From Sedimentisphaerales bacterium (lineage in GTDB: Bacteria > Planctomycetota > Phycisphaerae > Sedimentisphaerales > Anaerobacaceae): a stretch of 64,000 bases of DNA. Position numbers and translations under genes: made by a program. The stretch's first letter is position 1. Each line of letters opens with the position of its first letter. Below the pieces are notes generated by a model that made no database searches, was not told the origin of the DNA, and was given only the letters and a program-made list of their open reading frames with translations. This document shows, one piece after another, positions 1,081-19,709 of the stretch. The stretch spans positions 3,840,001-3,904,000 of the forward strand of contig OY970194.1 of the NCBI GenBank assembly GCA_963708075.1, written 5' to 3'.

Positions 1081-1113
1081 AAAGAAAAAGCACTCCCGCA
1101 AAAGGAGTGCTTT
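1081..1113 (-). terminator. Intrinsic terminator, expression platform of the TPP riboswitch
   Basis: Minus strand AAAGCACTCC-TTTTGCG-GGAGTGCTTT continuing into a U-rich run (TTTTTCTTT), between the aptamer and the thiS start. Confidence 0.88.
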
Positions 1114-1124
1114 CAAGCCCGGTC

Positions 1125-1230
1125 AAGCCTCCCTTCGCAGGTCTTAACCTGATCAGGTTCGTAGGGTCATCGCTCCCGGAGCGATCTCTCAGCCGCCGCG
1201 ACAGGCTACGCGCGACGGCTCCCCTGGCTT
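1125..1230 (-). ncRNA. TPP riboswitch (THI element)
   Basis: Minus strand AAGCCAGGGGAGCC...GGCTGAGAG...GACCCTACGAACCTGATCAGGTTAAGACCTGCGAAGGGAGGCTT; contains CUGAGA, ACCUGAUC and GCGNAGGGA hallmarks and a P1 pair AAGCC/GGCTT; upstream of thiS-thiG. Confidence 0.95.
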
Positions 1231-1248
1231 CATGCTAATACTCGTGTT

Positions 1249-2578: not shown

Positions 2579-3652
2579 CTATATGATGTAGTCATCCACA
2601 TAGACGCGAGATTGCTTGGGCCTGACATAGACGATGTCATCCTGACGCAAATTGAGACTCTTTGCTCGTTCGTGCGACACTTCGACCTGGACAAGCTGAC
2701 CATCCTCGGTCCGCAGCTCCAATTTCACGATGGGTCCGACAGATTGGATTCGAACCACGGTGGCTCGCAGCGAATCGGCCTCTGCAGGCGAGGAGGACAC
2801 CTCCAAGTCATAGGGGCGAACGAAGAGCCGGGCCTGGCGACCCTCGGCAGCCTTGGAACCGGGCACAGCCACAGCAAGCGGGCCGAAGACAGCCCGGTCC
2901 TGCTGGACGCGCCCGTGGAACACATTGACGTGTCCCAGGAAGTTCAGGACAAACTCATTGGCCGGCTGGTGAAAGACCTGTTCCGGCGTGCCCACCTGCT
3001 CGATTCGGCCCTCGTTCATCACGACCACCTGGTCGGCGACCTCCAAGGCCTCCTCCTGATCGTGGGTCACGAAAAGACTGGTGACATGAATCTCGTCGTG
3101 CAGTCGCCGCAGCCAGTGACGCAACTCCTGCCTCACCCGCGCATCCAGGGCGCCAAAAGGCTCGTCGAGCAGCAGAACCTCGGGCTCGACCGCCAACGCA
3201 CGGGCCAGGGCCACCCGCTGCCTCTGGCCCCCGGACAACTGGCTCGGATAGCGGTTGGCCAGGTTCTCCAATTGAATCAGGCGAAGCAGCTCGCCGACTT
3301 TCTGGCGTATCACCTGTCGCGAAGGGCGGCTGTGACGAGGGCGGACCGTCAACCCGAAGGCGATGTTGTTGAAGACGGTCATGTGTTTGAACAGCGCGTA
3401 GTGCTGGAATACGAAGCCCACCCGGCGGTGCCGCGCGTGACGATCACCCACGTCCTGATCGTGAAATTTCACCGGGCCGCTGCCGGGGTCGGCCATCTCC
3501 AGCCCCGCGACGATGCGCAACAACGTTGTTTTTCCCGAGCCCGAGGGGCCAAGCAAGGCCACCAATTCCCCGCTCGGAACATGCAGGCTGACGTTTTTCA
3601 GGGCGGCGAATCGGCCGAATGTCTTGCTGATGCTGCGAACTTCAATACTCAT
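2579..3652 (-). CDS. cysA: Sulfate/thiosulfate ABC transporter ATP-binding subunit
   Basis: [39 protein letters not shown]-like C-terminus; follows cysT-cysW; ends ...VDDYII. Confidence 0.96.
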
Positions 3653-3662
3653 GAGATTTCAC

Positions 3663-4597
3663 CTACCCATTTGTAGTGGCGCCATAAGGCGTTTCTTCCG
3701 AGCCGTTGCTTTCTTTGGATGCCCTTACGGGCACACTACCAACCTGCCTGCGGTCCACTGCCGCTTTCCATTCGACGAGACTCTTGAGAATCAACGTCAC
3801 AATGGCCAGCAAGGCAAGCAAGGACGCCACGGCAAAGGCGGCGACGGAGTTGTATTCGTTGTAGAGGTTCTCTATGTGCAGCGGCATCGTATTGGTTTGG
3901 CCACGAATGTGGCCCGACACGACGGATACCGCTCCGAACTCTCCCATCGCCCGTGCGTTGCAGAGAATCACGCCATACAGCACCGCCCACTTGACGTTGG
4001 GCAGAGTGACGCGCAGAAACGTCTGCCAGCCGCCGGCGCCCAGCGTGATGGCAGCCTCCTCGTCCTCAATCCCCTGCGTCTGCATCAGTGGTATGACCTC
4101 GCGGGCGATGAAGGGAAAGGTAACGAAGAGCGTCGCCAGGATGATCCCGGGCACGGCGAAGAGGATCCGGAGATTATGCTCCGCCAGGAACGATCCGAAC
4201 CAGCCCTGGCGCCAAACAGCAAAACGTAAATCAGTCCTGAGATCACCGGCGACACGGCAAAAGGCAGGTCAATCAGAGTGGTCAGAATGCTCTTGCCGAC
4301 AAAGTCGAATTTGCCAATAGCCCAGGCGGCCGCGATCCCAAAGACAAGGTTGCAGGGGACAGCCAGCCCCGCGACAAGCAAGGTCAGACGAATCGCAGCC
4401 AAAGCATCAGGATCGTGGAACGATGCGAAGTAAGCCCCGATCCCTTTTCTGAACGCTTCCACAAACACCAGCGCCAGCGGCAGAACAAGGAATAATCCCA
4501 GGAACGCCAGGACAATAATGATGATGGTCCACTTGACAATCGGCGACCCGCCGGTGGCAGCTATTACATTCTTGCCGCTATTGGCTTTGACGACCAT
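3663..4597 (-). CDS. cysW: Sulfate ABC transporter permease CysW (one -1 frameshift near 4208, probably a sequencing error)
   Basis: AGGAGAG RBS and ATG at 4597 (MVVKANSG...[14 protein letters not shown]); adding one base in GCC(C)AG gives LLFGAQGWFG and joins to [21 protein letters not shown]...[10 protein letters not shown]. Confidence 0.93.
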
Positions 4598-4605
4598 GCG
4601 CTCTC

Positions 4606-5481
4606 CTAAGACTCGTGCCGTGCAGTCCACTTCTGCAACAGGTTGATGACCAACAGCAATGCGAACGACAGGACCAGCATGACGACGGCAATTGCCGTGG
4701 CTCCGGCATAGTCGTACTCCCCGAGCTTCGTGATAATCAGCAGAGGAACGATCTCCGTCCGCATCGGCATATTGCCCGAGATGAACACCACCGAGCCGTA
4801 CTCGCCCAGGGCCCGGGCAAAGGCCAGGGCAAAACCTGTCAGCAGCGCCGGCAAGACCTCCGGCAAAATCACCCTTCGAAAGACCTGGACCCGGTTGGCC
4901 CCGAGACTCGCGGCCGCCTCCTCCACCTCCTTGTCCAACTCCTGCAGGACCGGCTGGACCGTGCGCACCACGAACGGCAATCCGATGAACGTCAAGGCGA
5001 TAACCACCCCGAGCGGCGTGAAGGCAACCTTGACCCCAAGCGGTTCCAGGAGTCGGCCCATCCAGCCGGTGGGAGCGTAGATCGTCGTCAGTGCGATGCC
5101 GGCCACCGCGGTCGGCAACGCAAACGGCAAGTCGATCATCGCATCCACGATCCGTCTGCCGGGGAAATCGTACCGGACGAGCGACCATGCCACCATGAGT
5201 CCGAACACCGCGTTGATGGCGGCGGCGGAAAGCGAGGCCCCGAGACTCAACTTGTAGGAAGCCAGCACGCGGGCGGATGTCACTGTACCCCAGAAATCGC
5301 CCCACTTCATGGACGCAGCACTGAGAAACATGGCCATCAGCGGGATCAAGACGATAAGGCTCAGATACAGGATCGAATAGCCCATGGTCAACCCGAACCC
5401 GGGGAGGATGCTGCGCTGTTTCAACGAATACGCCAAAATGGACCTCCTGCAGTGCTCCAGCAACGTGGGACGAAGCGTCAT
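4606..5481 (-). CDS. cysT: Sulfate ABC transporter permease CysT (CysU)
   Basis: [48 protein letters not shown] motifs. Confidence 0.96.
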
Positions 5482-6509
5482 CTCGTCGGCTGATAAATCT
5501 GGTCAAATATGCCTTTATCCGCAAAATGCGTTTTCTGGGCTTTCTGCCAACCGTCGAAGGCATCATCGATCGTGACCAGATTCACCTTGGGAAACTGCTG
5601 CTCATGTTTCTTGGCGACCGACTCAAGGCGCGGGCGATAGTAATGCCTGGCCGCGATCTCTTGGCCTTCTTCGGTGTAGAGGTATTCAAGATAGGCCTGG
5701 GCGACCGCTCGTGTGCCGTGACGGTCTACCACCTTGTCCACCAAGGCCACGGGCGGCTCGGCCAGAATGCTCAACGATGGCACGACAATCTCAAACTTGT
5801 CCTTGCCCAGCTCATTGATCGCCAGGAACGCCTCATTCTCCCAAGCCAGCAGAACGTCTCCGATGCCTCGCTGCACGAAGGTCGTCGTGGAGCCGCGGGC
5901 CCCGGAATCAAGTACAGGGACGTTCTTGAACAGTTTCGTCACAAACTCCTGTGCCCGCTGCTCGGGACTTTGACTCGTATCGGTCTTGTAGTGCTTCAGG
6001 GCGTAGGCCCATGCCGCCAGGTAATTCCATCTCGCCCCGCCGGAAGTCTTTGGATTGGGGGTGATCACCGCGATGCCGGGTTTGATGAGATCGTCCCAGT
6101 CCTTGATGTTCCTTGGATTGCCCTTATGCACGAGAAAGACAATCGTCGAAGTGTACGGGGAGCTATTGTTCGGCAGCCTGGTCTGCCAGTTCCTGGGCAG
6201 CAGGTTGGCCTTTTCATTAATCGCGTCGATGTCATACGCCAGCGCCAGTGTCACCACGTCGGCCTCCAGACCATCGATAACAGCGCGGCCCTGCTTACCG
6301 GAGCCGCCGTGGGATTGTTTGATCGTCACCTTGTCGCCCGTCTTGCCCTCCCAGTGCTTGGCAAACGCGGCATTGTACTCCTCGTAAAGCTCGCGTGTCG
6401 GGTCATAGGAGACGTTCAGCAGCGTGATCTTCCTGGCCGCCGCCGGCTGTGCGAAAACAGCGGCAACAAATAGAACAAGCATTGAAGACATGTGCATTCT
6501 CGTAGCCAT
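5478..6509 (-). CDS. sbp: Periplasmic sulfate-binding protein
   Basis: Signal peptide; [51 protein letters not shown]. Confidence 0.96.
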
Positions 6510-6547
6510 CTTAATTCACCTTTCATCGTTAGATGTTGTGGAACCGT

Positions 6548-7933
6548 TTAGAATGTGAGTTGTGCACGGACAAGGATGGCATCTTCCGCCTCGCGATCCC
6601 GACCGCCGGTCTCGCCGCCATCAAAGGCGGTGTGCTCGTAATCGAACATCCATTTGACGTTCCTGCTCCAGTACCAGTTCAGGCCCAGGCCCCAGGCCCT
6701 GGCTGACTGAGCGTATTTGGAGGGGTCCGCGTAGGTCGGAAATGCCTCGTCGTCCACATCGAGCTGACTGAGGCGCCCGACGACCTCGAACGCACCCCAC
6801 GTGCTGGCGACCGGGTCGAAGACTTCCCTGGGAACCACGGACTTGTACGAGGCCGCCTCGCCTGTCAGCACGTAGGACGCGGCGACCTGCCAGCCTTTGT
6901 TCTGCAGCTTGTCGGAACTGGCCCCGCGCACCACTTCCTGCGAGGAAACGATGTACTCGGTCAGCAATCCGAACGAGCCGTAACTGTAATAGGCCTGAGG
7001 CGAGTAGCGTATCGCCTCACCATCGGCAAATACGTCGTCGCGGTACTTGAAAAGGGTCTGTTGCCCCGGCGTCTTATAGCTGGGCAGGTACTGCCCGTGC
7101 CCGGCACTGCCATCCTTCTTGCCCGCTGTCACGGCAAAGCCGACGCCAAGTCCGTCGAGCAAGGGGATGTTCCCTCCCTTCCAGGGACTCACGAAGATCC
7201 TGGCCGCCAGCTCCTTATTGTCGTCCACGTCGGAGTCGCTGCTGCCGTTGTCTACGGCGCCGTTGAACACGCCCACGGCATAGCGGAGCTTGCCCCCCAG
7301 AAGGGTCTCGCTGTGGAACGTGGCCCCGAGATCGTAGTTGGGCGTCAAGTTGCCTGAGAGGGCAAGCTCGGTGAACAAGGTGTCGGCATTGGATTGCAGC
7401 CGCTCGATGCCGAACGGCACCTTGTACCGGCCGACCTGCAATTTCGCCTCCGGGATGTACTTGAAGTCCAGATACGCGTCCTGGATGGCTGCTTTGCCCT
7501 CGCCGAAATCAGGCACGAGCCGGAAATCGATGTCGCCGAAAACTGTGCCTTCGAAGAACGGTCGGGCGCGACGCAGCAGGAAGGTGTCATCGCTTGTCTT
7601 CGGGTCCTCCCGGCCACTGACGGAGCGGCTGTCCACCTGTAACAAGCCCCGCAATCTCAGCGAGAAATCGCCATCGGGACTCTTGATGGAGAAACCCTCT
7701 TTGGCATTTGCGGTTACGAAAGGCGAGGTCTTCGCTTCTTCCGCTGCCTGCTCGCGCTCGATCTCCAACTGCCTCTCCCTGATCCGCTCTCTTTGTTCCA
7801 ACTCGGCCACACGGTCTTCGACCGTTCTCGTTGATGTCGTATTTGGATCGTTCGATCCTGCCATTGCAGCGTTCGAACCGATAGGGTTCAAACCCGCAAG
7901 AATGATGATGGTCAGTACACTGTGACTCTTCAC
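6548..7933 (-). CDS. OprO/OprP-family anion-selective porin
   Basis: Signal peptide, coiled-coil N-region, LRRARP, DAYLD, PFGIERLQS, WGAFEVVGRLS, GLNWY, terminal Phe (AQLTF); GTG start. Confidence 0.85.
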   Translation of the reverse strand: MKSHSVLTIIILAGLNPIGSNAAMAGSNDPNTTSTRTVEDRVAELEQRERIRERQLEIEREQAAEEAKTSPFVTANAKEGFSIKSPDGDFSLRLRGLLQVDSRSVSGREDPKTSDDTFLLRRARPFFEGTVFGDIDFRLVPDFGEGKAAIQDAYLDFKYIPEAKLQVGRYKVPFGIERLQSNADTLFTELALSGNLTPNYDLGATFHSETLLGGKLRYAVGVFNGAVDNGSSDSDVDDNKELAARIFVSPWKGGNIPLLDGLGVGFAVTAGKKDGSAGHGQYLPSYKTPGQQTLFKYRDDVFADGEAIRYSPQAYYSYGSFGLLTEYIVSSQEVVRGASSDKLQNKGWQVAASYVLTGEAASYKSVVPREVFDPVASTWGAFEVVGRLSQLDVDDEAFPTYADPSKYAQSARAWGLGLNWYWSRNVKWMFDYEHTAFDGGETGGRDREAEDAILVRAQLTF

Positions 7934-8053
7934 TTGTGAGATACTTTCGTCTTGAGACAGTAGGATCTTCCGGTTGTCCGGTCAGATCAGATGAACTATG
8001 CTTCTGCATCGATGAGGCCGCCCGTTGATATGGGTAGGCTCTTGATTTGAGCG

Positions 8054-9196
8054 TCAACACGCCGCCAGTGCCTGGTCCAGATCCTCAATCAAGTCCTCGA
8101 TATCCTCAATGCCGACGGAAAGACGGATCGTGCCGTCGGTGATGCCGATCCTCTGTCGTTCCTCAGGAGTGAGGGTTGCGTGGCTCATCGTAGCCGGGTG
8201 ACAGGCCAGCGACTCGACGCCGCCGAGGCTCTCGGCGAACAGGAAGAGCTTCAGTCCCTTCACAAATCGTCGTACTTGCTCAACGCCGCCGTTCAATCGG
8301 AACGTGACGATCGCACCAAAGCCATCCATCTGCGCCTTGGCCAGCTCGTGCTGCGGGTGGCTGGGCAGGCCGGGATAGATCGTCTCTTGTACTTTCGGAT
8401 GCCCCTCCAGGAACTCGGCGACGGCCCGGGCGTTGGCCTCGTGCTGTTTCATACGGACCGCCAGCGTCTTGAGCCCGCGCAGGCTCAGCCAGCAGTCCCA
8501 CGGGCCCGGCACCGCTCCGGCTGCGTTCTGATGGAACTTGATCGCTTCGTGCAGACGGTCGTCGCTGGTCACCACCGCGCCGCCGATGACATCGCTGTGC
8601 CCGCTGACGTACTTGGTGGTGCTGTGCAGGACGACATCGGCCCCCTGCGTCAGAGGGCGTTGGAAGTACGGCGAAGGGAACGTATTGTCCGCCACCAGCT
8701 TGGCGCCGCGATCGTGGGCGATCTTCGCCACCGCCCGCACGTCCACCAGTTGCAGCAGCGGATTAGCGGGAGTCTCGATCCACACCAATTTCGTCATGGG
8801 TTGTGTCGCCTTGGCGAACGCCTCCGGCCGGGTTCCGTCCACGTAGGTGAAGCTCACGCCTCTCGGTCGATACACCTGCTCGAACAGCCGAAATGTCCCG
8901 CCGTAGATGTGTTCCGCCGACACGACGTGGTCGCCCGGGCGCAGGAGCGAAAGTACGGCGTCAACTGCAGCCATGCCCGAGCTGAACGCCAAGCCGAAGC
9001 GAGCTTCCTCCAGCGCCGCCAGGCACTGCTCCAGGGCCGTACGCGTGGGATTGCCGCTGCGGGAGTACTCGTACGCATGGGGCTGCCCGACGTCGTGGAA
9101 CGTGAAGTTCACCGTCTGGTACACCGGCACGATGATCGAACCCGTCGTCGGATCGGGCTGTTGGCCGACGCGAATCGCCTTGGTCGAAAATCTCAT
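8054..9196 (-). CDS. Cystathionine gamma-synthase/gamma-lyase family PLP enzyme
   Basis: YSRSGNPTR, FSSGMAA, WIETPANP, DNTF, HSTTKYVSGHSD, AESLGGVESL, IRLSVGIED; exact specificity (MetB vs MccB) not resolvable. Confidence 0.92.
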   Translation of the reverse strand: MRFSTKAIRVGQQPDPTTGSIIVPVYQTVNFTFHDVGQPHAYEYSRSGNPTRTALEQCLAALEEARFGLAFSSGMAAVDAVLSLLRPGDHVVSAEHIYGGTFRLFEQVYRPRGVSFTYVDGTRPEAFAKATQPMTKLVWIETPANPLLQLVDVRAVAKIAHDRGAKLVADNTFPSPYFQRPLTQGADVVLHSTTKYVSGHSDVIGGAVVTSDDRLHEAIKFHQNAAGAVPGPWDCWLSLRGLKTLAVRMKQHEANARAVAEFLEGHPKVQETIYPGLPSHPQHELAKAQMDGFGAIVTFRLNGGVEQVRRFVKGLKLFLFAESLGGVESLACHPATMSHATLTPEERQRIGITDGTIRLSVGIEDIEDLIEDLDQALAAC

Positions 9197-11062
9197 ATCT
9201 GGTAGTCCTGAATGTATTGCTTTTCCTGTAGCAGTGAGTGTAGCGCAGACAGGGCGTCGGGATCGACCTTGTCCAAAATGAGGTCGGGCTTGCGCCTGCC
9301 CAGTTGGACCTCGCCGACGTTCACAACGATCAGCTCGCCCGGCTGATTCAACGCGTCGATCGTCTGTAGCTCGAAGTCGTCCAGGTCGGCAATCGACGTG
9401 ATGACAATGAGTCCGGCGTCGGTGAACAGGTGGGCCGTCTCGCCCAGGCGGCGCAGGTACTCCTCTCGGCCGCCCAGGACGTTCAGGTCGGCGTTGAGTC
9501 CCAGCAACTGGTTGCTCAGGCCGAGGTAATAGGCGAGGCGTCCGGAGTTGTGGAGATGCTCTTCGATCGCGCGTCCCAGCGACTCCATGTCGCCGCCTTG
9601 CGGACCGCAGATCACCACCAGGGCCGGCCTCTGTCCGTGACGCGAGGCCCGCTCCTGGGGGCTGATCCCGCTGCGCACCCAGGCCTGGTTCCGCTGCCGC
9701 ACGTGCTCAAGCACGAGGGTGTTGGACGCCTGCTCGGCTGACAGAATCACGCCGCCCCCGGTGATCTCGTAGTCGTCGATGATAACAAACCGTCCGGTCT
9801 GCGGGATCTCGACGGCCGGGTCGCATCCCACGGGCTTGAGCGTCTCCAGCGTCACGTGGGCCACGTCATGGCGCTCGATCTGCCGGCGGTTGGCCACGGT
9901 GCTCAGATCGGAGGCGTCGATGACCGCGTGCACCCGCGTCAGGTACGCCGCCGCACGAGTGGCATGGAGTTTCAACTTGTAGCGTTTGCCCATGACCATC
10001 GGGTTGGGACTCAGCCAGAAGAGGTTCGCCTCCAGCTTGGCGGACGAGCGAGGTTGGGGCTCGTCGGCCCGGACCATCAGCTCGCCGGGCTTGACATACA
10101 CTTGAGTCTGGAGCGTCACGCCGGTGCTTTCGCCGGCCTGGGCTTCCTGACGCTGGGACCGCGGGAAGGTCTCCACGCTGCGGATGCGGGTCCGCTTCCC
10201 GCTGGGTAGAAAGACGACCTCGTCGCCCACGTGCAGCCGGCCGGTTACGATCCTGCCGGCGATGATGCGGCGATCATCCCCCTGCTTCGGTGAACTTGTA
10301 GATATCCTGGACCGGCAGGCGAAGGGGCTTGTCCACAGGCGCGGGCTCCTTCTGCAACTTGTCCAGCAGGTCGAGAATGGTCAGCCCTGTATGCCATGGC
10401 ATGGGCTCTGATCTGCGGGCCACATTGTCGCCCTCGCGGGCACTGATCGGGATGAAGGCCATCGGCTCCAGGCCGATCTTCGCCAGGAATTGGCCGTACT
10501 CATCGCGGACGGCCTCGAATGCCTCCTGTCGATATCCCACAATATCCATCTTGTTGACGCACACCGCGATCTGGCGGATGCCCAGCATGCTCATCAGGTA
10601 GCCGTGCCGGCGGGAGTTCTCCTGCACCCCCTCGGCCACATCGATCACCAGCAGTCCCGCCTCCGCTCGGGCCGCCCCGGAGATCATGTTCTTGAGAAAC
10701 TCGATGTGTCCGGGCGCATCGATGATGATGTACTCTCGCCTGGCGGTATGGAAGAAGCACCTGGCGGAGTCGATGGTGATGCCCTGCGCCTGCTCATCCT
10801 TGAGCGCATCCAGCAGGAAGGCGTACTCGAAAGGCTTGGCATTGCGGTGGCACGCCTGCTTGACCTGCTCCAGCTTACCCTCGGGCAGCGAGCCGGTGTC
10901 GGCCAGGAGCCGGCCGACGAGCGTGCTCTTGCCGTGGTCCACATGGCCGATGACCACAATGTCCATCTGCTCCCGTGCGACTGCGGATTTCAAATTCCCA
11001 ATTTGAGATTCTACGGAGGTCATGCTTTGTCTTCCATTTGTCACGGTCAGCGCCATTGTCAT
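9193..11062 (-). CDS. cysN: Sulfate adenylyltransferase large subunit with a degenerate C-terminal APS-kinase-like domain (one +1 frameshift in the G5 run at 10278-10282)
   Basis: [33 protein letters not shown]; removing one G gives [15 protein letters not shown] and joins to 9193..10230; start uncertain (11062, 11056 or 11023); ends ...IQDYQI. Confidence 0.9.
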
Positions 11063-11116
11063 TGTGCCCTGGTTGCGGTTGCTCAATCCGCAATCCACAA
11101 TCCGAAATCCGCAATC
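10979..11116. repeat. Inverted pair of heptamer tandem arrays at the cysD/cysN junction
   Basis: 11085-11116 AATCCGC-AATCCAC-AATCCGA-AATCCGC-AATC and the degenerate inverted arm 10979-11010 GACTGCGGATTTCAAATTCCCAATTTGAGATT. Confidence 0.75.
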
Positions 11117-11996
11117 ACATATAGCCTTCACGCCGGAGCGTTTCCAGGCCGTAGCCGTCTTCCTTGTCCTGGTCCCGGCCGGAGCGCTCGGCGATATTGG
11201 CGAACTTGCCGCTGCGCAGCTCTTCGATGATCTCGTGGACGTTCCTGGAAGTCGATTGCACCGGCTTGGTGCACGGCCAGCAGCCCAGCGAGCGGTAGCG
11301 TTGCCCCGTACCCTGGTCGAAGTACAGGCTCACCATGGGGATGCTCTCGCGCTCGATATACTCCCAGACGTTCAGCTCCGTCCAGTCCAGCAGCGGGTGA
11401 ATCCGCACGTGCGTGCCGGGGGCGAAGTCGGTCTTGAACTGGTTCCACAACTCGGGCGGCTGGTTCGACACGTCCCAGTCGCTGTGCCGGTCGCGCGGCG
11501 AGAAGTACCGTTCCTTGCTGCGGCTGCCCTCCTCATCGGCCCGGGCGCCGACGATCACACCGGTGAACGGCTCGCCGCCGGTGGTCTTGACGTATTCACC
11601 GGTCTGATGGTCCAGCACCCAACGGGGCCACTCCCCAGAGAGCGTGTGCTTCAGCGCTTCGCTCTTCAACGCCGCGCAGCATTGCAGGCGGGTGCACTGG
11701 CCGTCGGGGAACGTGCGCCTGGCCGACAGGGCCTCGTCGTTGCGGCCGAAGATCATGTTCAGCTTCCACTGCTTGGCCAGGCGGTCGCGATACTCGATCA
11801 TCTCGGGGATCTTGTACTGCGTGTCGATGTGCATCAGCGGCAGCGGCACGTGCCCGAAAAAGGCCTTGCGGGCCAGCCACAGCAGGACTGTGCTATCCTT
11901 GCCGATCGACCAGAGCATCACAAGCTGCTTGAACTCGCGATACGCCTCGCGAAGGATATAGACGCTCTGTGCTTCGAGCTTTTCGAGATGGTCCAT
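11115..11996 (-). CDS. cysD: Sulfate adenylyltransferase small subunit
   Basis: [59 protein letters not shown], ends EGYM; TAATG overlap with cysH. Confidence 0.96.
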
Positions 11997-12733
11997 TAGG
12001 GTCTCCTCCCGGGGATGATCTTGCCATCCTGGATGTGCAGACCGCACTCTTTGTGTTCCGGCTGCTCCCACCACCAGCGGCCGGCGCGGATATCGTCGCC
12101 CGGTTTCACCGCCCGGGTGCAGGGCGCGCAGCCGATGCTGGGAAACCCCTGGTCGTGCAGCGCGTTATAGGGAATCTTATTCGCCCGGATGTACTCCCAC
12201 ACCTGCTGCTCGGTCCAATCGATGAGCGGATTGATTTTGCACAGGCCGAACGTCCGATCCCACTCGACCTTCTGGGTCGACTGGCGCGTCACCGACTGCT
12301 CCCTTCGCAAGCCGCACATCCATGCGTCAGCCGTGGAAAGAACTCGCCTGAGCGGGTTAGTCTTTCGCACAGCACAGCACATCTTCCGAAGCTCCACACT
12401 CTGGTAGAACAGGTTCGGCCCATGCGTGCGGACCATTTCTTCAAGCTCCCGTGTGTCGGGCGCGAGGACCTCGTAGCGGAAACCGTACCGCTGCATCGTC
12501 CGTTCCATGGTTTCGTAAGTCTCGGGAAAGAGCCTGCCCGTGTCGAGGGTGAAAATCCTCGGCCTGGCAGTGACCGCGCACACGAGATGGGTCAGGACCT
12601 GGTCCTCGACGCTCAGGCTCGACGCGAGCACAAGCCGCTCGGCAGGAACAATCCGGAATGCTTCCCTGACCGCTCCTTCGGCATCCTTGCCTTCGATAGC
12701 GTTTTGAAGTCTGGAGAGAAGATCGTTCATCAT
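11996..12733 (-). CDS. cysH: APS reductase ([4Fe-4S]-type CysH)
   Basis: [43 protein letters not shown]; the CC plus CxxC ligands mark the Fe-S, APS-using type. Confidence 0.93.
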
Positions 12734-12960
12734 ATTGAATACTCCGGCGGCTTCTCTTGGATGCGGCCGAATGGGAGCCGGTTCCATGCCCGTTCATGCA
12801 GATAGTACAAAGTGACTTTGGTGAACAGCTCAACGATGCCGATGGATAGCGCTATTTTGAGCCTTCCGCTGATGAGGAAAGAGATCACAATAGTATCCAG
12901 CGTGCCGGTCAGTGCGCAGGAGAATGCTTTGAGTATACTGCGATACGCCTTCTCGTGCAT
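12730..12960 (-). CDS. DUF2061-like small membrane protein
   Basis: 76 aa; RSILKAFS...GTLDT...TK..LYYLHERAW pattern; ends ...PPEYSI. Confidence 0.8.
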   Translation of the reverse strand: MHEKAYRSILKAFSCALTGTLDTIVISFLISGRLKIALSIGIVELFTKVTLYYLHERAWNRLPFGRIQEKPPEYSI

Positions 12961-12962
12961 TC

Positions 12963-15713
12963 TCACGCCTTTCGGATAGTCACCGACCAATGATCGGCCG
13001 CCCTGGCCTGATCGAGGACGCGGTGTCCTTCCGCCTCCACGGATCGCGGGACATTCTCAATCGGCTCTCCATCATCGAGAAGCACCTGAAGAACCTGGCC
13101 TGCGTTCAACTGCGACAAGGCCATTTTCGTCTTCACGAAATTCATCGGGCAGGCCACTCCCCGCAGATCCTTGACAAGGTCGATACTCGCAGGCTCTGTT
13201 CTTCCATTCTCTCCGCTCTTTTGCGATGCGGGTGGATGGAACTGCAGGGTGTCATCCATCGACGCGTAGAGGTCTTCGATCTCTTTGGAGAAAGCCAAAG
13301 CCCGGTCGCTGACGGCCGCAAGAGCCTCTGCTCCACTTCGCGAAGCCTCAAGCACCAGCCTGAACCCTCCCGCGACGATACCGGTATCAATGAAACCTCG
13401 CTCGAACAGATCCAGAGCGTCATGGTCGTCAGCCGCCTCGACCCCCCTGGTAATGAGCAGCGCGCGTGCGGCCGTTACTACAAGCCTTCGCAGAATGGCC
13501 AACCTGACGGAAGGATCGCTCTCGGCGTCAAAAGCCGACCGATCCGCTCGCACCTTTTCCAGACCCACCTCGATCAGATCAAAGAGGCCGGCGGCGCATT
13601 CTCCCGTCCCCCTCCCGGCAAGGGAGAACGGCTCCTGGGCGCCCCAGTCGCGATAATAACTCTCATCTTCTTCGATCGTGGGGATGTTGCGATACTTCTC
13701 GCAGATTGCCCGGATGCGAACCTCACCCTCTTTATCGAGGTAGTCCTGGAAAGAGGAAAACGATTCCTTCCGGATTGCATATTCGTGGAGGAATTCCTCG
13801 ACGAAGCGAGGAACATCGTGCGCGCTGATCTCATCGATTCTGTGCGCCAGCGCTGAACCATTTGCCGAATCGATTTTCGCCCCGGCGACGATGGTGTATG
13901 CCGGATAACTGTGGCGGCCTTTACGCACCGCTTTACCGAAGAAACCCAGATCGGCGAGACTATGCCGGCCGCAGGAATTGGAGCAGCCGGAAAAGTGGAG
14001 ACGAAAATCACCCAGGCCGTCCAAATCAATATCCGAAGTCTTCAGCCGGTCGATTGTCGCGCTCAGCGCACCTCTCGAAAGGCAAATCCCGAGCTGGCAG
14101 GTGCTTGCCCCTGCGCAGGCAACAGCATTGGCAAAGAGCCTTGGAGAATCCCAGGACGTGGACACCTTGCGAACCAGCGCGAAGATATTCCCCAGATACT
14201 CCTCCGGAATGTTGCGCAGAGAAATATTCTGGTCGGCCGTGCAGCGTATGGTACTATCGCCGAACACGGCCAGGGCGTCAGCAAGCAGCGCCGCCTTTTC
14301 TGATGTAATATCCCCGAGCGGCAATGGCACGAGAATGGAAGAGAGTCCGCTTTGGCGTTGTGCCGTCACATACCGCTTCTTCCAGAGATCGAAGTCCGCG
14401 GATCGTTCGTCTATTGCAGCGAGTCCTGACGGCACTTGTGCCGTGTCGGACCATACCAGCGGTACAAAGGGGGCGGGGTGCTCCGCCTCAAGGGCAACTC
14501 GCTGTTTCTGATATTCCTCAACGAAACGATCTCTCCCCAGTGTATTCCAGAGAAACCGCAACCGGGCCGAGTGTTTATTTCTGCGGTTGCCGAGTCTTGA
14601 GAACAGGCGTTTGATCGCCTCCGCGACGAGAAAGACTTCGTCTTCCGCAATGAAATCGTGGAGCAATTGTCCGGCCTGAGGCGATCGTCCCATGCCCCCC
14701 GCCACGAATACCCTGAATCCCCGCCGTTTTCCCTTCACCATGGCAATGAACCCCACGTCATTGGCGGTCGCAAATGCGTTGTCAGCCGTGGAATTGGAGA
14801 AGGCAATTTTGAATTTCCGTGGAAGCAGCCATGAATCGCCAAGCGCGATCAGCCGCGAGGTCAATTCGACCGCATGCGGGGTGACATCGAATACCTCGTC
14901 AGCAGCAATGCCGGAGTCACAGGAAGCGATGATGTTGCGCACGGTGTTGCCGCCCCCTCCCCTGCTGGCAAGTCCGACAGCGGAGAGGCCCCTGATCACC
15001 GGGACCATGTTTTCGAGAGGCACGTCGTGCATCTGAATTTCCTGCCGGGTCGTGACGTGAAGCCGTCCGGACGCGAGCCTCGATGACAGATCCGCGATGC
15101 GGCGAAGTTGCCTGGGTGTGATGATTCCGGCCGCGCAGCGAATACGGACCATGAAGCTGCCTTTGGTGCGCTGTTCGTAGACCCCGAACGGGACCCTGCG
15201 GGCTTTGAATTCGGCCGCCGTCACCGTGCCGGAGCGCAACCGGTCGACAAACCCTTCCAGTTCGTTTATTTCCTTTGCGTAGTTCCCGGGAATCGCATAT
15301 GCCAGCATCATTTCTCCTTTGTCCTCGATAATGAGTGTTTCGTCTGTGACTGTTCCCTGACGGATGCGAAAAGCCTTTGCCTCTCGTTGGCCGGGGATCA
15401 GGGACACGATCGCATAGATGATGGCCGGATCGTAGGCGAGCCGGATGTCCTCGGCGGACGGCCGCGCCGGCGACGCAGGATGCGTATGGTAGACGGCCAG
15501 GATTTCGAGCCCCTCGGCGCGGACGTGCCGCAGGGCCGCGAATTGCTCCCGGGGATCAAGCGAAAAATGCTCCGGGCTGCGATCCACGTTCGTCATGGGG
15601 ATGGCCTTCTTCACCTCCCCGGCGGTCCCGGCAAGATAGCCGCACGCCTCGTTGGGCGACTCCCGCTCCCCCTGGGCGAGAATCGCGTCGCTGATGTCTC
15701 TCGGAATCTTCAT
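12963..15713 (-). CDS. JAMM/Mov34 metallopeptidase (HcyD/Mec-like) in frame with a siroheme sulfite reductase and a C-terminal TusA/SirA domain
   Basis: N-term EACG...YHTHPASPARPSAED; middle FGVYEQR, HVTTRQ, NTVRN, LPRKFK, CAGASTC, SGCSNSCG; C-term DLRGVACPMNFVKTK. An internal RBS AAGGAGA with ATG at 15311/15308 means these may be two genes. Confidence 0.88.
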   Translation of the reverse strand: MKIPRDISDAILAQGERESPNEACGYLAGTAGEVKKAIPMTNVDRSPEHFSLDPREQFAALRHVRAEGLEILAVYHTHPASPARPSAEDIRLAYDPAIIYAIVSLIPGQREAKAFRIRQGTVTDETLIIEDKGEMMLAYAIPGNYAKEINELEGFVDRLRSGTVTAAEFKARRVPFGVYEQRTKGSFMVRIRCAAGIITPRQLRRIADLSSRLASGRLHVTTRQEIQMHDVPLENMVPVIRGLSAVGLASRGGGGNTVRNIIASCDSGIAADEVFDVTPHAVELTSRLIALGDSWLLPRKFKIAFSNSTADNAFATANDVGFIAMVKGKRRGFRVFVAGGMGRSPQAGQLLHDFIAEDEVFLVAEAIKRLFSRLGNRRNKHSARLRFLWNTLGRDRFVEEYQKQRVALEAEHPAPFVPLVWSDTAQVPSGLAAIDERSADFDLWKKRYVTAQRQSGLSSILVPLPLGDITSEKAALLADALAVFGDSTIRCTADQNISLRNIPEEYLGNIFALVRKVSTSWDSPRLFANAVACAGASTCQLGICLSRGALSATIDRLKTSDIDLDGLGDFRLHFSGCSNSCGRHSLADLGFFGKAVRKGRHSYPAYTIVAGAKIDSANGSALAHRIDEISAHDVPRFVEEFLHEYAIRKESFSSFQDYLDKEGEVRIRAICEKYRNIPTIEEDESYYRDWGAQEPFSLAGRGTGECAAGLFDLIEVGLEKVRADRSAFDAESDPSVRLAILRRLVVTAARALLITRGVEAADDHDALDLFERGFIDTGIVAGGFRLVLEASRSGAEALAAVSDRALAFSKEIEDLYASMDDTLQFHPPASQKSGENGRTEPASIDLVKDLRGVACPMNFVKTKMALSQLNAGQVLQVLLDDGEPIENVPRSVEAEGHRVLDQARAADHWSVTIRKA

Positions 15714-16522
15714 TGTTCGTGTCTCTTCAAATCGCAAACGGGCTGCTCGTAATCCTCAAGCCGGGTAATCGTCGGGTGCGAGCCGCAGATCGGGCATTCC
15801 GGGTTCCGTTTGATGCGGATCGTCCGAAACTCCATGGATAGGGCGTTGAACGTCAGCAGGCGGCCGGTCAGGAGTTCCCCTTTGGCGATCAGGAACTTGA
15901 TCGCTTCCGCGGCCTGGATCGTCCCCAGCATGCCCGCTACTGCTCCGAGCACCCCCGCCTGGGAGCATGATGGCACGGCGTTCCTCGGCGGCGGACTCAG
16001 GAAGACGCATCGATAGCACGTGCTGCCCGGCACGTACGTCATGGTCTGTCCCTCGAAACGCAGGATCCCGCCGTGCGAGAAGGGCTTGCGAGCCATCACG
16101 CACGCGTCGTTCACGAGGAATTTCGCAGGGAAATTGTCGGTTCCGTCGATCACGAAATCGTAGTCGCGAATGATGTCGAGGACATTATCTGCAAAGACAC
16201 GCTCCTGATACGTCCTGACCGTGATGCCCGGATTGATCTGGAGCATCTTCTCTTTCGCCGAGACGACCTTGGGCGTGCCGATGTCGGGCGTGAAATGAAT
16301 GACTTGTCGCTGCAGATTGCTCCTGTCGACGGCGTCGCCATCGACAATGCCGATAGTGCCGACGCCTGCGGCGGCAAGATAGAGCGCCGCGGGAGCGCCC
16401 AGGCCGCCCGCGCCGACGATCAGGATCCTGCCCTGCAGGATTCTCTCCTGTCCCTCGATGCCGATGTCCCTGAGGATAATGTGTCGGCTGTATCGTTCGA
16501 GCTGTTCGTCATTCAATGGCAT
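15710..16522 (-). CDS. ThiF/MoeB-family sulfur-carrier adenylyltransferase (HcyF-like)
   Basis: RYSRHI, GAGGLG, SNLQRQ, DGTDNF, CYRC, PSCSQAGVLG, CPIC; flanked by the metY-like and JAMM genes. Confidence 0.92.
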   Translation of the reverse strand: MPLNDEQLERYSRHIILRDIGIEGQERILQGRILIVGAGGLGAPAALYLAAAGVGTIGIVDGDAVDRSNLQRQVIHFTPDIGTPKVVSAKEKMLQINPGITVRTYQERVFADNVLDIIRDYDFVIDGTDNFPAKFLVNDACVMARKPFSHGGILRFEGQTMTYVPGSTCYRCVFLSPPPRNAVPSCSQAGVLGAVAGMLGTIQAAEAIKFLIAKGELLTGRLLTFNALSMEFRTIRIKRNPECPICGSHPTITRLEDYEQPVCDLKRHEQ

Positions 16523-16525
16523 GGT

Positions 16526-17752
16526 TCACGCTCCCAGGGCCTGTTCGATATCCGCTTGCAGGTCTTCCACGTCCTCGATGCCAATGGATAGTCGTATCAG
16601 CGTGTCGGGGACGCCCATCTGCCGTTTCAACTCATCCGGGTATTCACTGAAGATTGTCGATGCCGGATGAAGAGCCAGCGTCTTGTTGTCGTTGATATTC
16701 GTCGCCCGGCGGACGAGCTTCAGCTTGTTGAGAAACGAGAAGCAGTCCTTCTTCGACGACAGGTCGAAGGTCAACAGCGCACCGCATCGCTCGCCAAAGA
16801 TGCCTGTTGCCACGCTGTGATGCGGCGAGGTTTTCAGGCCCGGGTAATTGACGCGCTGCACTCGAGAATTGCGGGCCAGATACTCCGCGATGGCCATGGT
16901 GTTCTGGCAGGACTTGTCGGCCCGCAGCGCCAGGGTCTCCAGGCCTATGCTCTGCAGATACGCGCTGTGCGGGGCCAGGCACCCGCCCGTATTGCGGAAC
17001 ACCTCCCGTTTGAGCTTGGTCATAAGGGTAAACGGGCCGCAGCGTCTGGCCTCCTGCTCCAGCTTGGGGTTGTGTCGCCAGTCGTAGGTGCCGTTGTCAA
17101 CGATGATCCCGCCGACCGTCGTGGCGCCGCCGGAGATGAGCTTCGTGCTGGAAAGCACCTCGAGATCGACGCCGAAATCCTTGCTTCGGAAGAAGTACAG
17201 CGGAGTGACGGTGGTATCCGCGATCAGCAGCAGACGATGCTTGCGAGCAATGGTCGAGAGAGCCTGGATATCGGCGACCTCAAGTTGCGGATTGGTGATC
17301 GTCTCGAAGAAGATGGCTCGTGTCCTGTCGTCGACCAGGGCCTCGATAGTATCTGGGCGGGATAGATCGGCATAGCGTACTTCCAGACCCCAGGGACCGA
17401 GCGTCTTTTCCAGAAGGGAGTACGTATTGCCGAAGACGTATCTCGTTGTGATGACATTGTCCCCCTGCCGGGCAATGCTCAGGAACGTGTTTGCGATCGC
17501 CGCCATCCCGGAAGAAACCGCCACCACAGCCAGGGCCCCGGAGATGTGTTTGATCTTCTGCTCCAGGTGCTCGACCGTCGGATTGCTGATCCGCGTGTAC
17601 ATGTGGCGGGGCCGCTTGCCCAGGAACGCCTCCTCAATCTCTTCGGCGGTCTCGAACTCGAAAGAGACCGACTCATAGATCGGCATGTGCAGCGAGCCGT
17701 GGGGATCTTTCCTGAGAAACGGAGCATGTATTGCCCTGGTGGTGAATCCCAT
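16526..17752 (-). CDS. O-acetylhomoserine sulfhydrylase-like PLP enzyme (MetY/MetZ family)
   Basis: YTRISNPT, SSGMAA, ETITNP, SSTKLISG (PLP Lys), LETL.LR, N.ND.KTLALHPAST, IRLSIGIED; ATG at 17752. Confidence 0.88.
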   Translation of the reverse strand: MGFTTRAIHAPFLRKDPHGSLHMPIYESVSFEFETAEEIEEAFLGKRPRHMYTRISNPTVEHLEQKIKHISGALAVVAVSSGMAAIANTFLSIARQGDNVITTRYVFGNTYSLLEKTLGPWGLEVRYADLSRPDTIEALVDDRTRAIFFETITNPQLEVADIQALSTIARKHRLLLIADTTVTPLYFFRSKDFGVDLEVLSSTKLISGGATTVGGIIVDNGTYDWRHNPKLEQEARRCGPFTLMTKLKREVFRNTGGCLAPHSAYLQSIGLETLALRADKSCQNTMAIAEYLARNSRVQRVNYPGLKTSPHHSVATGIFGERCGALLTFDLSSKKDCFSFLNKLKLVRRATNINDNKTLALHPASTIFSEYPDELKRQMGVPDTLIRLSIGIEDVEDLQADIEQALGA

Positions 17753-17756
17753 GATT

Positions 17757-17963
17757 TTATGCCCCTCCGCCCATGAAATAGAGGAAATCGACCTCGTCGT
17801 CTTCTTTGAGCACGGTGGCGCCGTACCGGTCGCGCTGCACAAACTCGCCGTTGAGTTGCACGCTCACCATTTCGGGCTGTTCCACCTTGTTGCGAACGAG
17901 CAGGTCAGCGATACTGAGCCCTGCTTCGATCTCCTGCGCCGCCCCATTGACTTTGATCTTCAT
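17757..17963 (-). CDS. ThiS-like sulfur carrier with a C-terminal Ala cap (HcyS-like)
   Basis: 68 aa MKIKVNG...VSVQLNGEFV...VDFLYFMGGGA; diglycine masked by Ala; JAMM peptidase in the same operon. Confidence 0.9.
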   Translation of the reverse strand: MKIKVNGAAQEIEAGLSIADLLVRNKVEQPEMVSVQLNGEFVQRDRYGATVLKEDDEVDFLYFMGGGA

Positions 17964-18013
17964 GCACAATCCTCATTCCGGGAGTAACGACAGAGACACA
18001 AGATATTACGTCT

Positions 18014-18961
18014 CTACGCTGTGATGTCAGCGAACAGGACCGACGACAGATAGCGCTCGCCGAAGCTGGGTATGATCGCCACGATCACCTTGCCCTTGTT
18101 CTCCGGCCGGGCAGCTACGATGCTCGCTGCCCGCAGCGCCGCCCCACTGGAGATGCCTACGAACAAGCCTTCTTCTTTCGCGGCTCGACGGGCATAATCA
18201 ATGGCCTCGTCCTGATCCACCTGAACGACCTCGTCCACGATCTTGAGATTCAACACCTTCGGGACAAATCCCGCACCGATCCCTTGGATCTTGTGCGGTC
18301 CGGGCTTGACCTCCTGGCCGGCCAGGGTCTGCGACAAAACCGGGCTCTGCGCCGGCTCGACCGCAATGGCCTTGAAGCTCGGCTTACGCGATTTAATCAC
18401 CTCCGCTACGCCGGTGATGGTGCCGCCCGTGCCCACGCCGGAGATCAGGATGTCGGCCTTGCCCTCGGTATCCCTCCAGATCTCCTCTGCGGTCGTCCGC
18501 CGGTGGATCTCCGGGTTCATCGGGTTCTCGAATTGCTGCGGGACAAATGCCCCCTTCTCCGCCTCGGCGATCTCCAAGGCCTTCTTCACCGCGCCTTTCA
18601 TCCCCTCGGCCGCTGGAGTCAGTACGAGCTCAGCACCAAGAGCCTTGAGCACCTTCCTTCGTTCAATGCTCATCGAGTCCGGCATGGTCAAGAGCAGTCG
18701 ATACCCTCGCACAGCGCAGACAAACGCCAGGGCAATACCCGTGTTCCCGCTGGTTGGCTCAACAATGGTCCCGCCCGGCTTGACCTTCCCGGCACGCTCT
18801 GCAGCGTCAATCATCGCCACCCCGATCCTATCCTTGACGGAGGCCAGCGGATTGCGGCTTTCGAGCTTGGCCAGGACGGTCCCGCCAGGAATCAACTTGT
18901 TCACTTGGACGAGAGGCGTCTCGCCTACCGTTGCGACGATGTCTTTGTACGTGCTCGCCAT
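18014..18961 (-). CDS. cysK: Cysteine synthase A (O-acetylserine sulfhydrylase)
   Basis: SVKDRIG (PLP Lys), [50 protein letters not shown]. Confidence 0.97.
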
Positions 18962-19031
18962 AATCCATCTCCTTTTCAGACCGTATCAGAGCCGTGACGC
19001 CATCTATAGTATTCCCATAAGAATCATACAC

Positions 19032-19053
19032 CACTATGTCTATGAGTATAGTG
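19032..19053. promoter_or_regulatory. Candidate Rrf2 operator overlapping the cysK -10 box
   Basis: Inverted repeat CACTAT-N10-ATAGTG; a related sequence, CACTATGTCAATG, lies on the minus strand at 19175-19187. Confidence 0.55.
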
Positions 19054-19072
19054 AACATTCAAAATATGTCAA
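19045..19072 (-). promoter_or_regulatory. sigma70 promoter of the cysK operon
   Basis: TTGACA-N16-TATACT on the minus strand in the AT-rich intergenic region. Confidence 0.8.
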
Positions 19073-19176
19073 GCGCTCACCTGCAAGAAAAAATGTGAAA
19101 TGGCTGCAAATCCTTGTTTAATAATGCTTTACAGAAATGTTTTTCTTGCGATAATCGCAAAATAGTCGAATGTCCA

Positions 19177-19205
19177 TTGACATAGTGAGCATTATTCGGG
19201 ACAAT
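19177..19205 (+). promoter_or_regulatory. sigma70 promoter of the Rrf2 gene
   Basis: TTGACA-N17-GACAAT. Confidence 0.7.
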
Positions 19206-19259
19206 CGCTCCTATAGCTTAGAGGAGGCATCAGAGTCTGAAGGTTGATAGGAGCCGAAT

Positions 19260-19709
19260 GTGAACCTGTCCCAGAAATGCCAATATGCCGTACGGGCTGT
19301 CCTTGAACTGGCGAAACACTATGGCCAGGGACCTGTGGCCATCAGCCAGATCGCAGCCAACCAGGCCATACCACAACGATTCCTTGAGAATATCCTCAAC
19401 GAGTTGAGACCGACGGGGTTGATCGAATCAAGACGTGGGATCCAAGGGGGCTACCTTCTCGCCCGCGATCCCGCAACAATATCCGTGGGCGAGATCATAC
19501 GCCTTGTCGAAGGGCCGCTCGATCCGGTGAAGTGCATGACAGACAAGAAGAGCCCTTCCTGTCCGCTGAAAGACAACTGTTCTCTCATCCACCTTTGGAG
19601 CAGGGCCAAGGCGGCCGTCGAGGAGGTATATGATAACGCCAACTTCCGTGACCTGGTCGAGGAGGAGAGGAAGTTGAGCAGATCGACGGTCATTGACTAC
19701 TGCATCTGA
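19260..19709 (+). CDS. Rrf2-family transcriptional regulator (CymR/IscR-like)
   Basis: YAVRAVLELA, IA..Q.IP..FLENIL, S.RG..GGY.LAR.P..I.VGEI; three Cys in C-x8-C-x5-C; GTG start after AGGAG; divergent from cysK; ends ...VIDYCI. Confidence 0.93.
   Translation: MNLSQKCQYAVRAVLELAKHYGQGPVAISQIAANQAIPQRFLENILNELRPTGLIESRRGIQGGYLLARDPATISVGEIIRLVEGPLDPVKCMTDKKSPSCPLKDNCSLIHLWSRAKAAVEEVYDNANFRDLVEEERKLSRSTVIDYCI

Follow-up and report, generated by a model that had tools for sequence, protein, structure and literature searches.

A 64-kb window of contig OY970194.1 from a Sedimentisphaerales bacterium (the window being the whole stretch of DNA analysed) carries, at positions 2579-19709, a minus-strand cluster for sulfate uptake and assimilation together with a divergent Rrf2 regulator gene. 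Four unrelated proteins of this locus end in the same short tail, [DE]-Y-x-I: the sulfate ATP-binding cassette (ABC) transporter ATPase CysA, the GTPase subunit of ATP sulfurylase CysN, a small DUF2061 membrane protein, and the Rrf2 protein itself. The best reading of the sequences and of a structural model is that the docking tail known from CysE and CymR, which plugs into the cysteine synthase CysK, has been reused on a transporter ATPase, an ATP sulfurylase and a DUF2061 protein. Judged by the sequences, the motif is real and selected, and the tails very probably dock on CysK; the full circuit, in which CysK would serve as a multi-target sensor of O-acetylserine (OAS) over transcription, import, and activation, is drawn by analogy and appears probable, with less confidence. 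The original prediction, made from the DNA letters alone, named these four ends; all are present where it placed them, the family names hold, and no further open reading frame (ORF) of at least 50 residues in the window ends in this way.

Enrichment and conservation of the tail

Measured against the proteome background, the tail is enriched. Across the 7.5 Mb genome, [DE]Y.I ends occur on 7 of 52,032 six-frame ORFs of at least 50 residues and on 6 of 5,889 called genes (rough calls based on a codon model), where 0.27-0.96 would be expected. The six are CysA, CysN, DUF2061, Rrf2, another Rrf2 that neighbors a second copy of cysK, and ComA (phosphosulfolactate synthase, C1:697937-698800), all from sulfur-related families, and the probability that at least four of the 19 locus genes would be tailed is about 3e-12. 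No called gene of the genome ends in a permuted motif or in [DE]Y.[LV]. A scan of runs of 19 genes for any shared end motif returned other runs of 4-6, all near-identical in the last 8 residues and thus paralogue-like, and runs of 3 arise by chance. ComA was rejected as a fifth partner because its terminal Ile is not fixed (36 Ile, 28 Val, and 17 Leu among 90 homologues); its surroundings (C1:692000-701400, L135) hold genes for a YeiH-like membrane protein, a fumarase-like protein and MmgE/PrpD, possibly a sulfonate pathway. The caveat that ATATGA stop/start overlaps might generate the tail is true of two window tails, but only 9 of 51 distinct tails of relatives lie in such overlaps, and the overlap was rejected as the cause; among the tails of relatives, ATC and ATT are also used for Ile, and all three stop codons are found.

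The tail is also kept among orthologues, with a variable x and a near-fixed Ile. Homologue sets were ranked by likeness to the query, so that family-wide tail frequencies are overstated; within these sets, the tail ([DE][YF]xI) is present on 90 of 107 DUF2061 homologues, on 81 of the best 120 CysA proteins of 8,000 scored, and on 22 of the best 150 distant CysN representatives, many of which are fragments. All complete cysN genes of syntenic loci in the genus carry it (G005, G007, and G013). Among 48 Rrf2 proteins of the window's order, 32 show the strict motif, 42 end in [YF]xI, and 44 have a terminal Ile. Where [DE][YF] occupies positions -4 and -3, the chain terminates in Ile in 90/90 DUF2061, 81/84 CysA, and 22/29 CysN proteins, while x takes 8-10 values. 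A subgroup of CysN ends in EYYL, with Leu for Ile (L030, L128, and several CysN representatives). Since the spacer between fold and motif differs in length among homologues (e.g., P0195 and P0207), and tail-less homologues stop at the fold or run past it, the motif follows the C-terminus rather than the fold.

Among the best 80 of at least 471 DUF2061 genome loci, 18 are tailed, distributed over Planctomycetota (3/3), Campylobacterota (6/6), Verrucomicrobiota (4/7), Spirochaetota (2/2), Bacteroidota (2/20), and unplaced loci (1/4), with none in Pseudomonadota (0/35). The CysH proteins of two relatives end in LLDYQI or LLNYQI, and in Bacteroidota DUF2061 loci two LuxR-type response regulators are tailed, LTEYYI (L007:9112-9768, minus strand) and SIDYVI (L036:423-1115, minus strand); by their sequences, LuxR-type proteins are a second regulator family carrying the tail. 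In Planctomycetota, Verrucomicrobiota, Campylobacterota, and Lentisphaerota, two or three tailed families can share one locus. The feature is not limited to a single operon: it recurs in at least six phyla and takes in further families (CysH, LuxR-type). On other pathway proteins of the same loci the tail is never seen: CysD 0/25, CysK 0/35, sulfite reductase 0/29, the permeases CysT/W 0/11, and ThiF 0/15. It is found on 3 of 7,455 unassigned ORFs of at least 60 residues, a few loci being counted twice in both tallies; the two LuxR-type regulators came to light among tailed ORFs without an assignment. Single members bear an alternative end, G[DE]GI, which resembles the enteric CysE tail, in place of the usual motif (L010 CysA, L054 DUF2061, and L131 Rrf2). 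In L010 CysA and L054 DUF2061 it reads GDGI, the same end as that of the Salmonella CysE peptide (PMC12895370).

CysK as the predicted docking partner

The window CysK scores 439.6 bits on TIGR01139 (cut-off 350.95) and, as predicted, retains the KPGPHKIQG loop, with T70-S-G-N-T74, Q143, and F144 intact; the TSGNT, Q143/F144, GxGT, and H-x-IQG-I-G-A loop elements are invariant in 26 aligned CysK proteins. The noted absence of cysE from the window was borne out, the sole CysE match of the genome lying at C1:10878-11828. It belongs to a second locus (C1:9412-11828) in which a second Rrf2 gene sits directly upstream of a second cysK and cysE; this Rrf2 ends in GSDYQI, a tail kept across the order while CysE ends in basic residues; the CysE of the window genome ends in GRPI. 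Beyond cysE, as far as C1:14816 (L134), follow nadA-, nifU-, and nifS-like genes, the three being named by eye. The original claim of CysK as an OAS-sensing hub docking on four partners draws support from enrichment, conservation, co-occurrence with cysK, and the CysA model, but as the genome has two cysK genes, the docking copy may be either of them.

Three strands make CysK the likely partner, namely the identity of the motif with the CysE tail of the phylum, its tracking of cysK presence, and the CysA model. Within the phylum, 8 of 20 CysE proteins end in Ile, as WDYVI, PEYTI, GEYAI, GQYSI, LMYEI, or GxGI, and the motif is thus the phylum's own CysE tail. In the window's order, 29 of 30 CysE loci (30 of 41 matches) are without terminal Ile. 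A mutual exclusion of the CysE tail and the other tails was considered and is not supported at phylum level, both being present in four genomes. Co-occurrence was assessed in a further 36 genomes that carry cysA, obtained by drawing 301, 401, and 41 genomes: the CysA tail is present in 19 of 28 genomes with cysK (26 above cut-off and 2 with cysK cut off at contig ends, counted as present) vs. 0 of 8 without a cysK reaching the cut-off (Fisher p=8e-4), and none of 12 Rrf2 proteins in five of these eight genomes is tailed. The prediction that the tail should fail where cysK is absent is consistent with these counts.

A complex of two CysK chains, two pyridoxal phosphate (PLP) molecules and CysA residues 240-357, CysA being the one partner modelled, was predicted in three runs alongside three controls. 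The score of 0.67 (runs 0.65-0.74) compares with 0.39 for the best control, in which CysK was replaced by an unrelated protein; 116 of 157 solved complexes attain the score mark applied, against 2 of 215 mismatched pairs. The runs have at least 40% of contacts in common, and the predicted local distance difference test (pLDDT) value of the partner is at least 72. As the prediction had it for the tail, the confident interface comprises CysA 351-357 only, set against CysK 70-74, 94, 117-124, 143-144, 177-178, and 220-231, and the terminal Ile357 is predicted to lie against T74 and N73 of TSGNT, Q143 and F144, G177 and T178, and G227 and A230 within G227-G231. This is the same pocket as that of the published Haemophilus influenzae CysE-peptide site residues (PMC9547175).

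Several points weigh against docking on CysK and the circuit built on it. The success of the model may reflect solved CysK-peptide structures that the predictor had memorized, author-made alignments and a ligand fall outside its calibration, which holds only roughly here, and the control with CysK replaced still reached the 0.39 given above. The association with cysK is also confounded by kinship: the eight cysK-less genomes belong to 5 families, and an underpowered test on a CysA tree, from which the last 12 residues had been left out, yields 1 independent pair when well-supported branches alone are counted and 5 when all are (sign test p=1). Three of these genomes have a completeness of 88-89%, and one (G044) encodes a divergent homologue whose loop reads HRIQG. 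Conversely, 9 of 28 genomes with cysK have a tail-less CysA, so the link is dispensable, and the coexistence of CysE and CysA tails in four genomes means that CysE need not have lost its tail. The weakest tails of the set are those of CysN, with 6 variants ending in Leu, cysA was found in just 2 of 24 genus genomes searched, ComA illustrates that a [DE]YxI end is possible without a fixed Ile, and the direction of each regulatory effect proposed below is borrowed from other systems.

A proposed sulfur-status circuit and its rivals

The favored circuit would run as follows. When sulfide is plentiful, OAS would be low and the pocket free, and CysK dimers would dock on the tails. Docked CysK would act as co-repressor of Rrf2 at the inverted repeat, as with CymR, would damp sulfate import via the regulatory TOBE domain of CysA, and would damp the ATP- and GTP-costly activation of sulfate via the adenosine phosphosulfate (APS)-kinase-like end of CysN. 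That end has GPQGGDMES at the P-loop position and no GK[ST], and without the P-loop lysine it looks regulatory. Sulfur starvation would reverse this, with OAS driving every tail from the pocket and turning on transcription, import, and activation at the same time. The DUF2061 protein, modelled (mean pLDDT 65) as a two-helix hairpin over residues 14-71 followed by an unstructured end, could be a membrane tether or buffer for CysK, and the mostly tail-less CysE of the order would leave the pocket to the other partners.

The regulator belongs to the Rrf2 family (PF02082, 136.5 bits; TIGR00738 above cut-off) and falls below the cut-offs for CymR (NF047409, 107.3 vs. 195) and IscR (TIGR02010, 96 vs. 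207.55). By analogy, its link to CysK would work like that of CymR, though the protein is not classed as CymR. It has three cysteines (Cys92, Cys101, and Cys107) within a stretch that the alignment shows CymR to lack, and it may therefore also bind an iron-sulfur cluster. The repeat CACTAT-N10-ATAGTG, a candidate Rrf2 operator, overlies the likely cysK -10 box and is conserved, recurring in 11 of the 12 upstream regions that were aligned, among them that of the window; with a weaker copy near 19166-19193, the repeats lie over the divergent cysK/rrf2 promoters. A genome scan for the operator gave no clear further regulon member. Two further high-scoring copies of the repeat lie at C1:1746380 and C1:1336001, away from any called gene start.

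Of the rival explanations, the one that survives best, though we consider it unlikely, turns control around: the tails would bind CysK to regulate or position CysK itself, by titration through abundant pathway proteins or in a loose metabolon, with only Rrf2 as a switch. An inserted tail blocks CysK, which retains 10% of its activity in the E. coli complex (PMC9547175), the DUF2061 protein is little beyond a predicted hairpin and a tail, and the tail sits on differing members in each genome (CysA, CysN, CysH, or DUF2061), as if its carrier were exchangeable. Against this stands the choice of carriers, which are entry steps (import, activation, and APS reduction) and regulators, never sulfite reductase, the maker of the CysK substrate; moreover, the CysA tail comes directly after its regulatory TOBE domain. 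Very improbable is the view that the tails are private structural ends or ATATGA by-products, shared by coincidence or functional on Rrf2 alone: ComA is such a case, the CysA tail closely follows the last strand, and two window tails lie in overlaps, whereas the chance probability of the cluster is minute, few tails of relatives lie in overlaps, the folds exist without tails, the DUF2061 end is unstructured in its model, and spacer length is variable. C-terminal degrons occur in bacteria, and least credible of all is a motif read by another factor, either a protease or adaptor that would turn sulfur-starvation proteins over quickly, or a different PLP enzyme; docking on CysK rests on a model in which the CysA domain gave its best control score with an unrelated protein, and the genome further encodes a CysM-like protein and several Cys/Met PLP enzymes, but the motif equals the CysE tails of the same phylum, Ile is specifically required, and the tail is not seen where cysK was not found. 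CysM, in addition, does not bind CysE tails (PMC9547175).

CysK docking, the favored reading, shares with the cysteine synthase complex, in which the CysE tail enters the CysK active site, the terminal Ile, the pocket residues in the model, and the motif itself on some planctomycete CysE; it differs in that the tail is here on a transporter ATPase, an ATP sulfurylase, a membrane hairpin, and a regulator, and in that CysE of the window's order mostly lacks the terminal Ile. To our knowledge, post-translational control of bacterial sulfate import and ATP sulfurylase is little understood. Enteric ATP sulfurylase associates with cysteine synthase, and in EIIA(Glc)-MalK inducer exclusion and the PII hubs a signal or metabolic protein docks on its targets, for instance on the regulatory domain of an ABC ATPase; we know of no Ile-tail mechanism in any of these. 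In the CymR-CysK co-repressor of Bacillus subtilis an Rrf2 protein encoded next to cysK likewise has an aromatic/Ile C-terminus, which has been modelled as the anchor in CysK (PMC11487621), whereas the window Rrf2 lies below the CymR cut-off, has three extra cysteines, and is one of four tailed locus proteins. The CdiA-CT toxin and EGL-9, moonlighting partners of CysK homologues, are likewise unrelated proteins docking by an Ile-ending tail (PMC12895370), though as single partners outside sulfate assimilation, where here several pathway members are tailed. In Arabidopsis, the O-acetylserine(thiol)lyase OASTL-A1 binds the STAS domain of the sulfate transporter SULTR1;2 and lowers transport (PMC4263312), which again places a cysteine synthase on the cytosolic domain of a sulfate transporter, albeit one of an unrelated family; the reported rise in OASTL activity does not fit active-site insertion (PMC4263312).

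CysD and CysN are listed without detail among complex-forming enzymes (PMC6829319), and the accessible part of PMC13040420 holds nothing on CysA, CysN, CysH, DUF2061, or LuxR-type proteins as CysK partners. The full-text literature searched, which took in few subscription papers and no supplements, yielded no Ile tail on these five families; interaction screens could hold such pairs. The docking principle is known, and its use on these families is apparently new, not having been found in the literature searched. The motif is short and searchable and names candidate CysK partners, whose identity was posed as an open question in a 2026 paper (PMC12895370). It suggests an initial function for some DUF2061 proteins and parallels the plant OASTL-sulfate transporter link, and CysK inhibitors would act on all tail partners. 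Evenly balanced, in our judgment, is the wider reading of CysK as a PII-like sulfur-status hub in many phyla, whose four-residue C-terminal plug would have been gained separately by several families (ABC transporter ATPase, ATP sulfurylase, APS reductase, membrane hairpin, and two unrelated regulator families) under one OAS switch; if true, the regulated targets of any genome could be read from its protein ends.

Layout of the locus and further observations

From cysK, the cluster runs through genes for a ThiS-like carrier, an O-acetylhomoserine sulfhydrylase-like enzyme, ThiF, a JAB-sulfite reductase-TusA fusion, and DUF2061 to cysH, cysD, and cysN, followed by a cystathionine lyase-family enzyme, a porin, sbp, cysT, cysW, and cysA (Table 1). 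CysA scores 389.8 bits on TIGR00968 (cut-off 342.75), with cysT, cysW, and sbp adjoining, and falls below the cut-off of NF008105 (452 vs. 502), and the DUF2061 protein scores 68.3 bits on PF09834 (cut-off 23.1). The two CysN halves score 236 and 80 on TIGR02034, the gene being split in the assembly; cysD adjoins it, and relatives are continuous.

Table 1. Coordinates, strands, and supporting matches of the locus features, numbered from the first base of the window.
Feature	Position	Strand	Match or remark
cysA, sulfate ABC transporter ATPase, C-terminal TOBE domain; ends VDDYII	2579..3652	-	TIGR00968, PF17850, PF12857
CysA tail D-Y-I-I and stop (ATA TAG)	2579..2593	-	residues 351-357 in CysK pocket in model
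cysW (one-base break at 4208), cysT, sulfate-binding protein, porin; tails absent	3663..7933	-	
Cystathionine gamma-synthase/lyase family PLP enzyme; own ATG overlaps cysN stop; tail absent	8054..9196	-	
cysN, GTPase subunit of ATP sulfurylase with fused APS-kinase-like domain; break at 10284; ends IQDYQI	9193..11131	-	
CysN C-part carrying the IQDYQI end	9193-10230	-	
CysN tail D-Y-Q-I and stop (ATA TGA)	9193..9207	-	
cysD and cysH; tails absent in window copies	11115..12787	-	
DUF2061 protein, 76 residues; ends PPEYSI	12730..12960	-	PF09834
DUF2061 tail E-Y-S-I and stop (ATA TGA)	12730..12744	-	
JAB-sulfite reductase-TusA fusion, ThiF-family adenylyltransferase, O-acetylhomoserine sulfhydrylase-like enzyme, ThiS-like carrier; tails absent	12963..17969	-	
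cysK, cysteine synthase A, predicted docking partner	18014..18961	-	TIGR01139
Inverted repeat CACTAT-N10-ATAGTG, candidate Rrf2 operator	19032..19053	.	conserved upstream alignment
Rrf2 regulator, divergent from cysK; ends VIDYCI	19260..19709	+	PF02082
Rrf2 tail D-Y-C-I and stop (ATC TGA)	19695..19709	+	

The one-base breaks in cysN and cysW frameshift both genes in the present assembly and are likely assembly errors. Neither appears in contigs from runs X1 and X3, which belong to two studies and have a depth of 2-3.5, and cysN and cysW of relatives are in frame; the two genes are therefore treated as intact, and their reading as true pseudogenes was rejected. Indel differences from the short-read contigs occur at 4208, 10284, and 12913-12916, and similar errors are likely elsewhere in the assembly, possibly including the end of cysE.

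DUF2061 proteins are common on viral contigs (at least 539 matches). Among the best 80 of these (L305-L384) none is tailed, and viral DUF2061 proteins were rejected as CysK hijackers. A search of the ESM Atlas with the DUF2061 protein returned only DUF2061 clusters. Longer, tail-less DUF2061 proteins, scoring about twice a single domain (L033, L039, L044, L051, L056, L061, L069, L081, and L082), are probably tandem DUF2061 repeats.

A thiamine pyrophosphate (TPP) riboswitch at 1113-1235 (minus strand), upstream of thiS-thiG, is the sole Rfam match in window positions 1-24000. The JAB-domain protease, sulfite reductase, and TusA parts form a single frame of 924 residues (12963-15737, minus strand), and one frame in L004 too; together with the adjacent ThiS-like carrier, ThiF, and sulfhydrylase, this fusion resembles the Wolinella protein-thiocarboxylate route to homocysteine.

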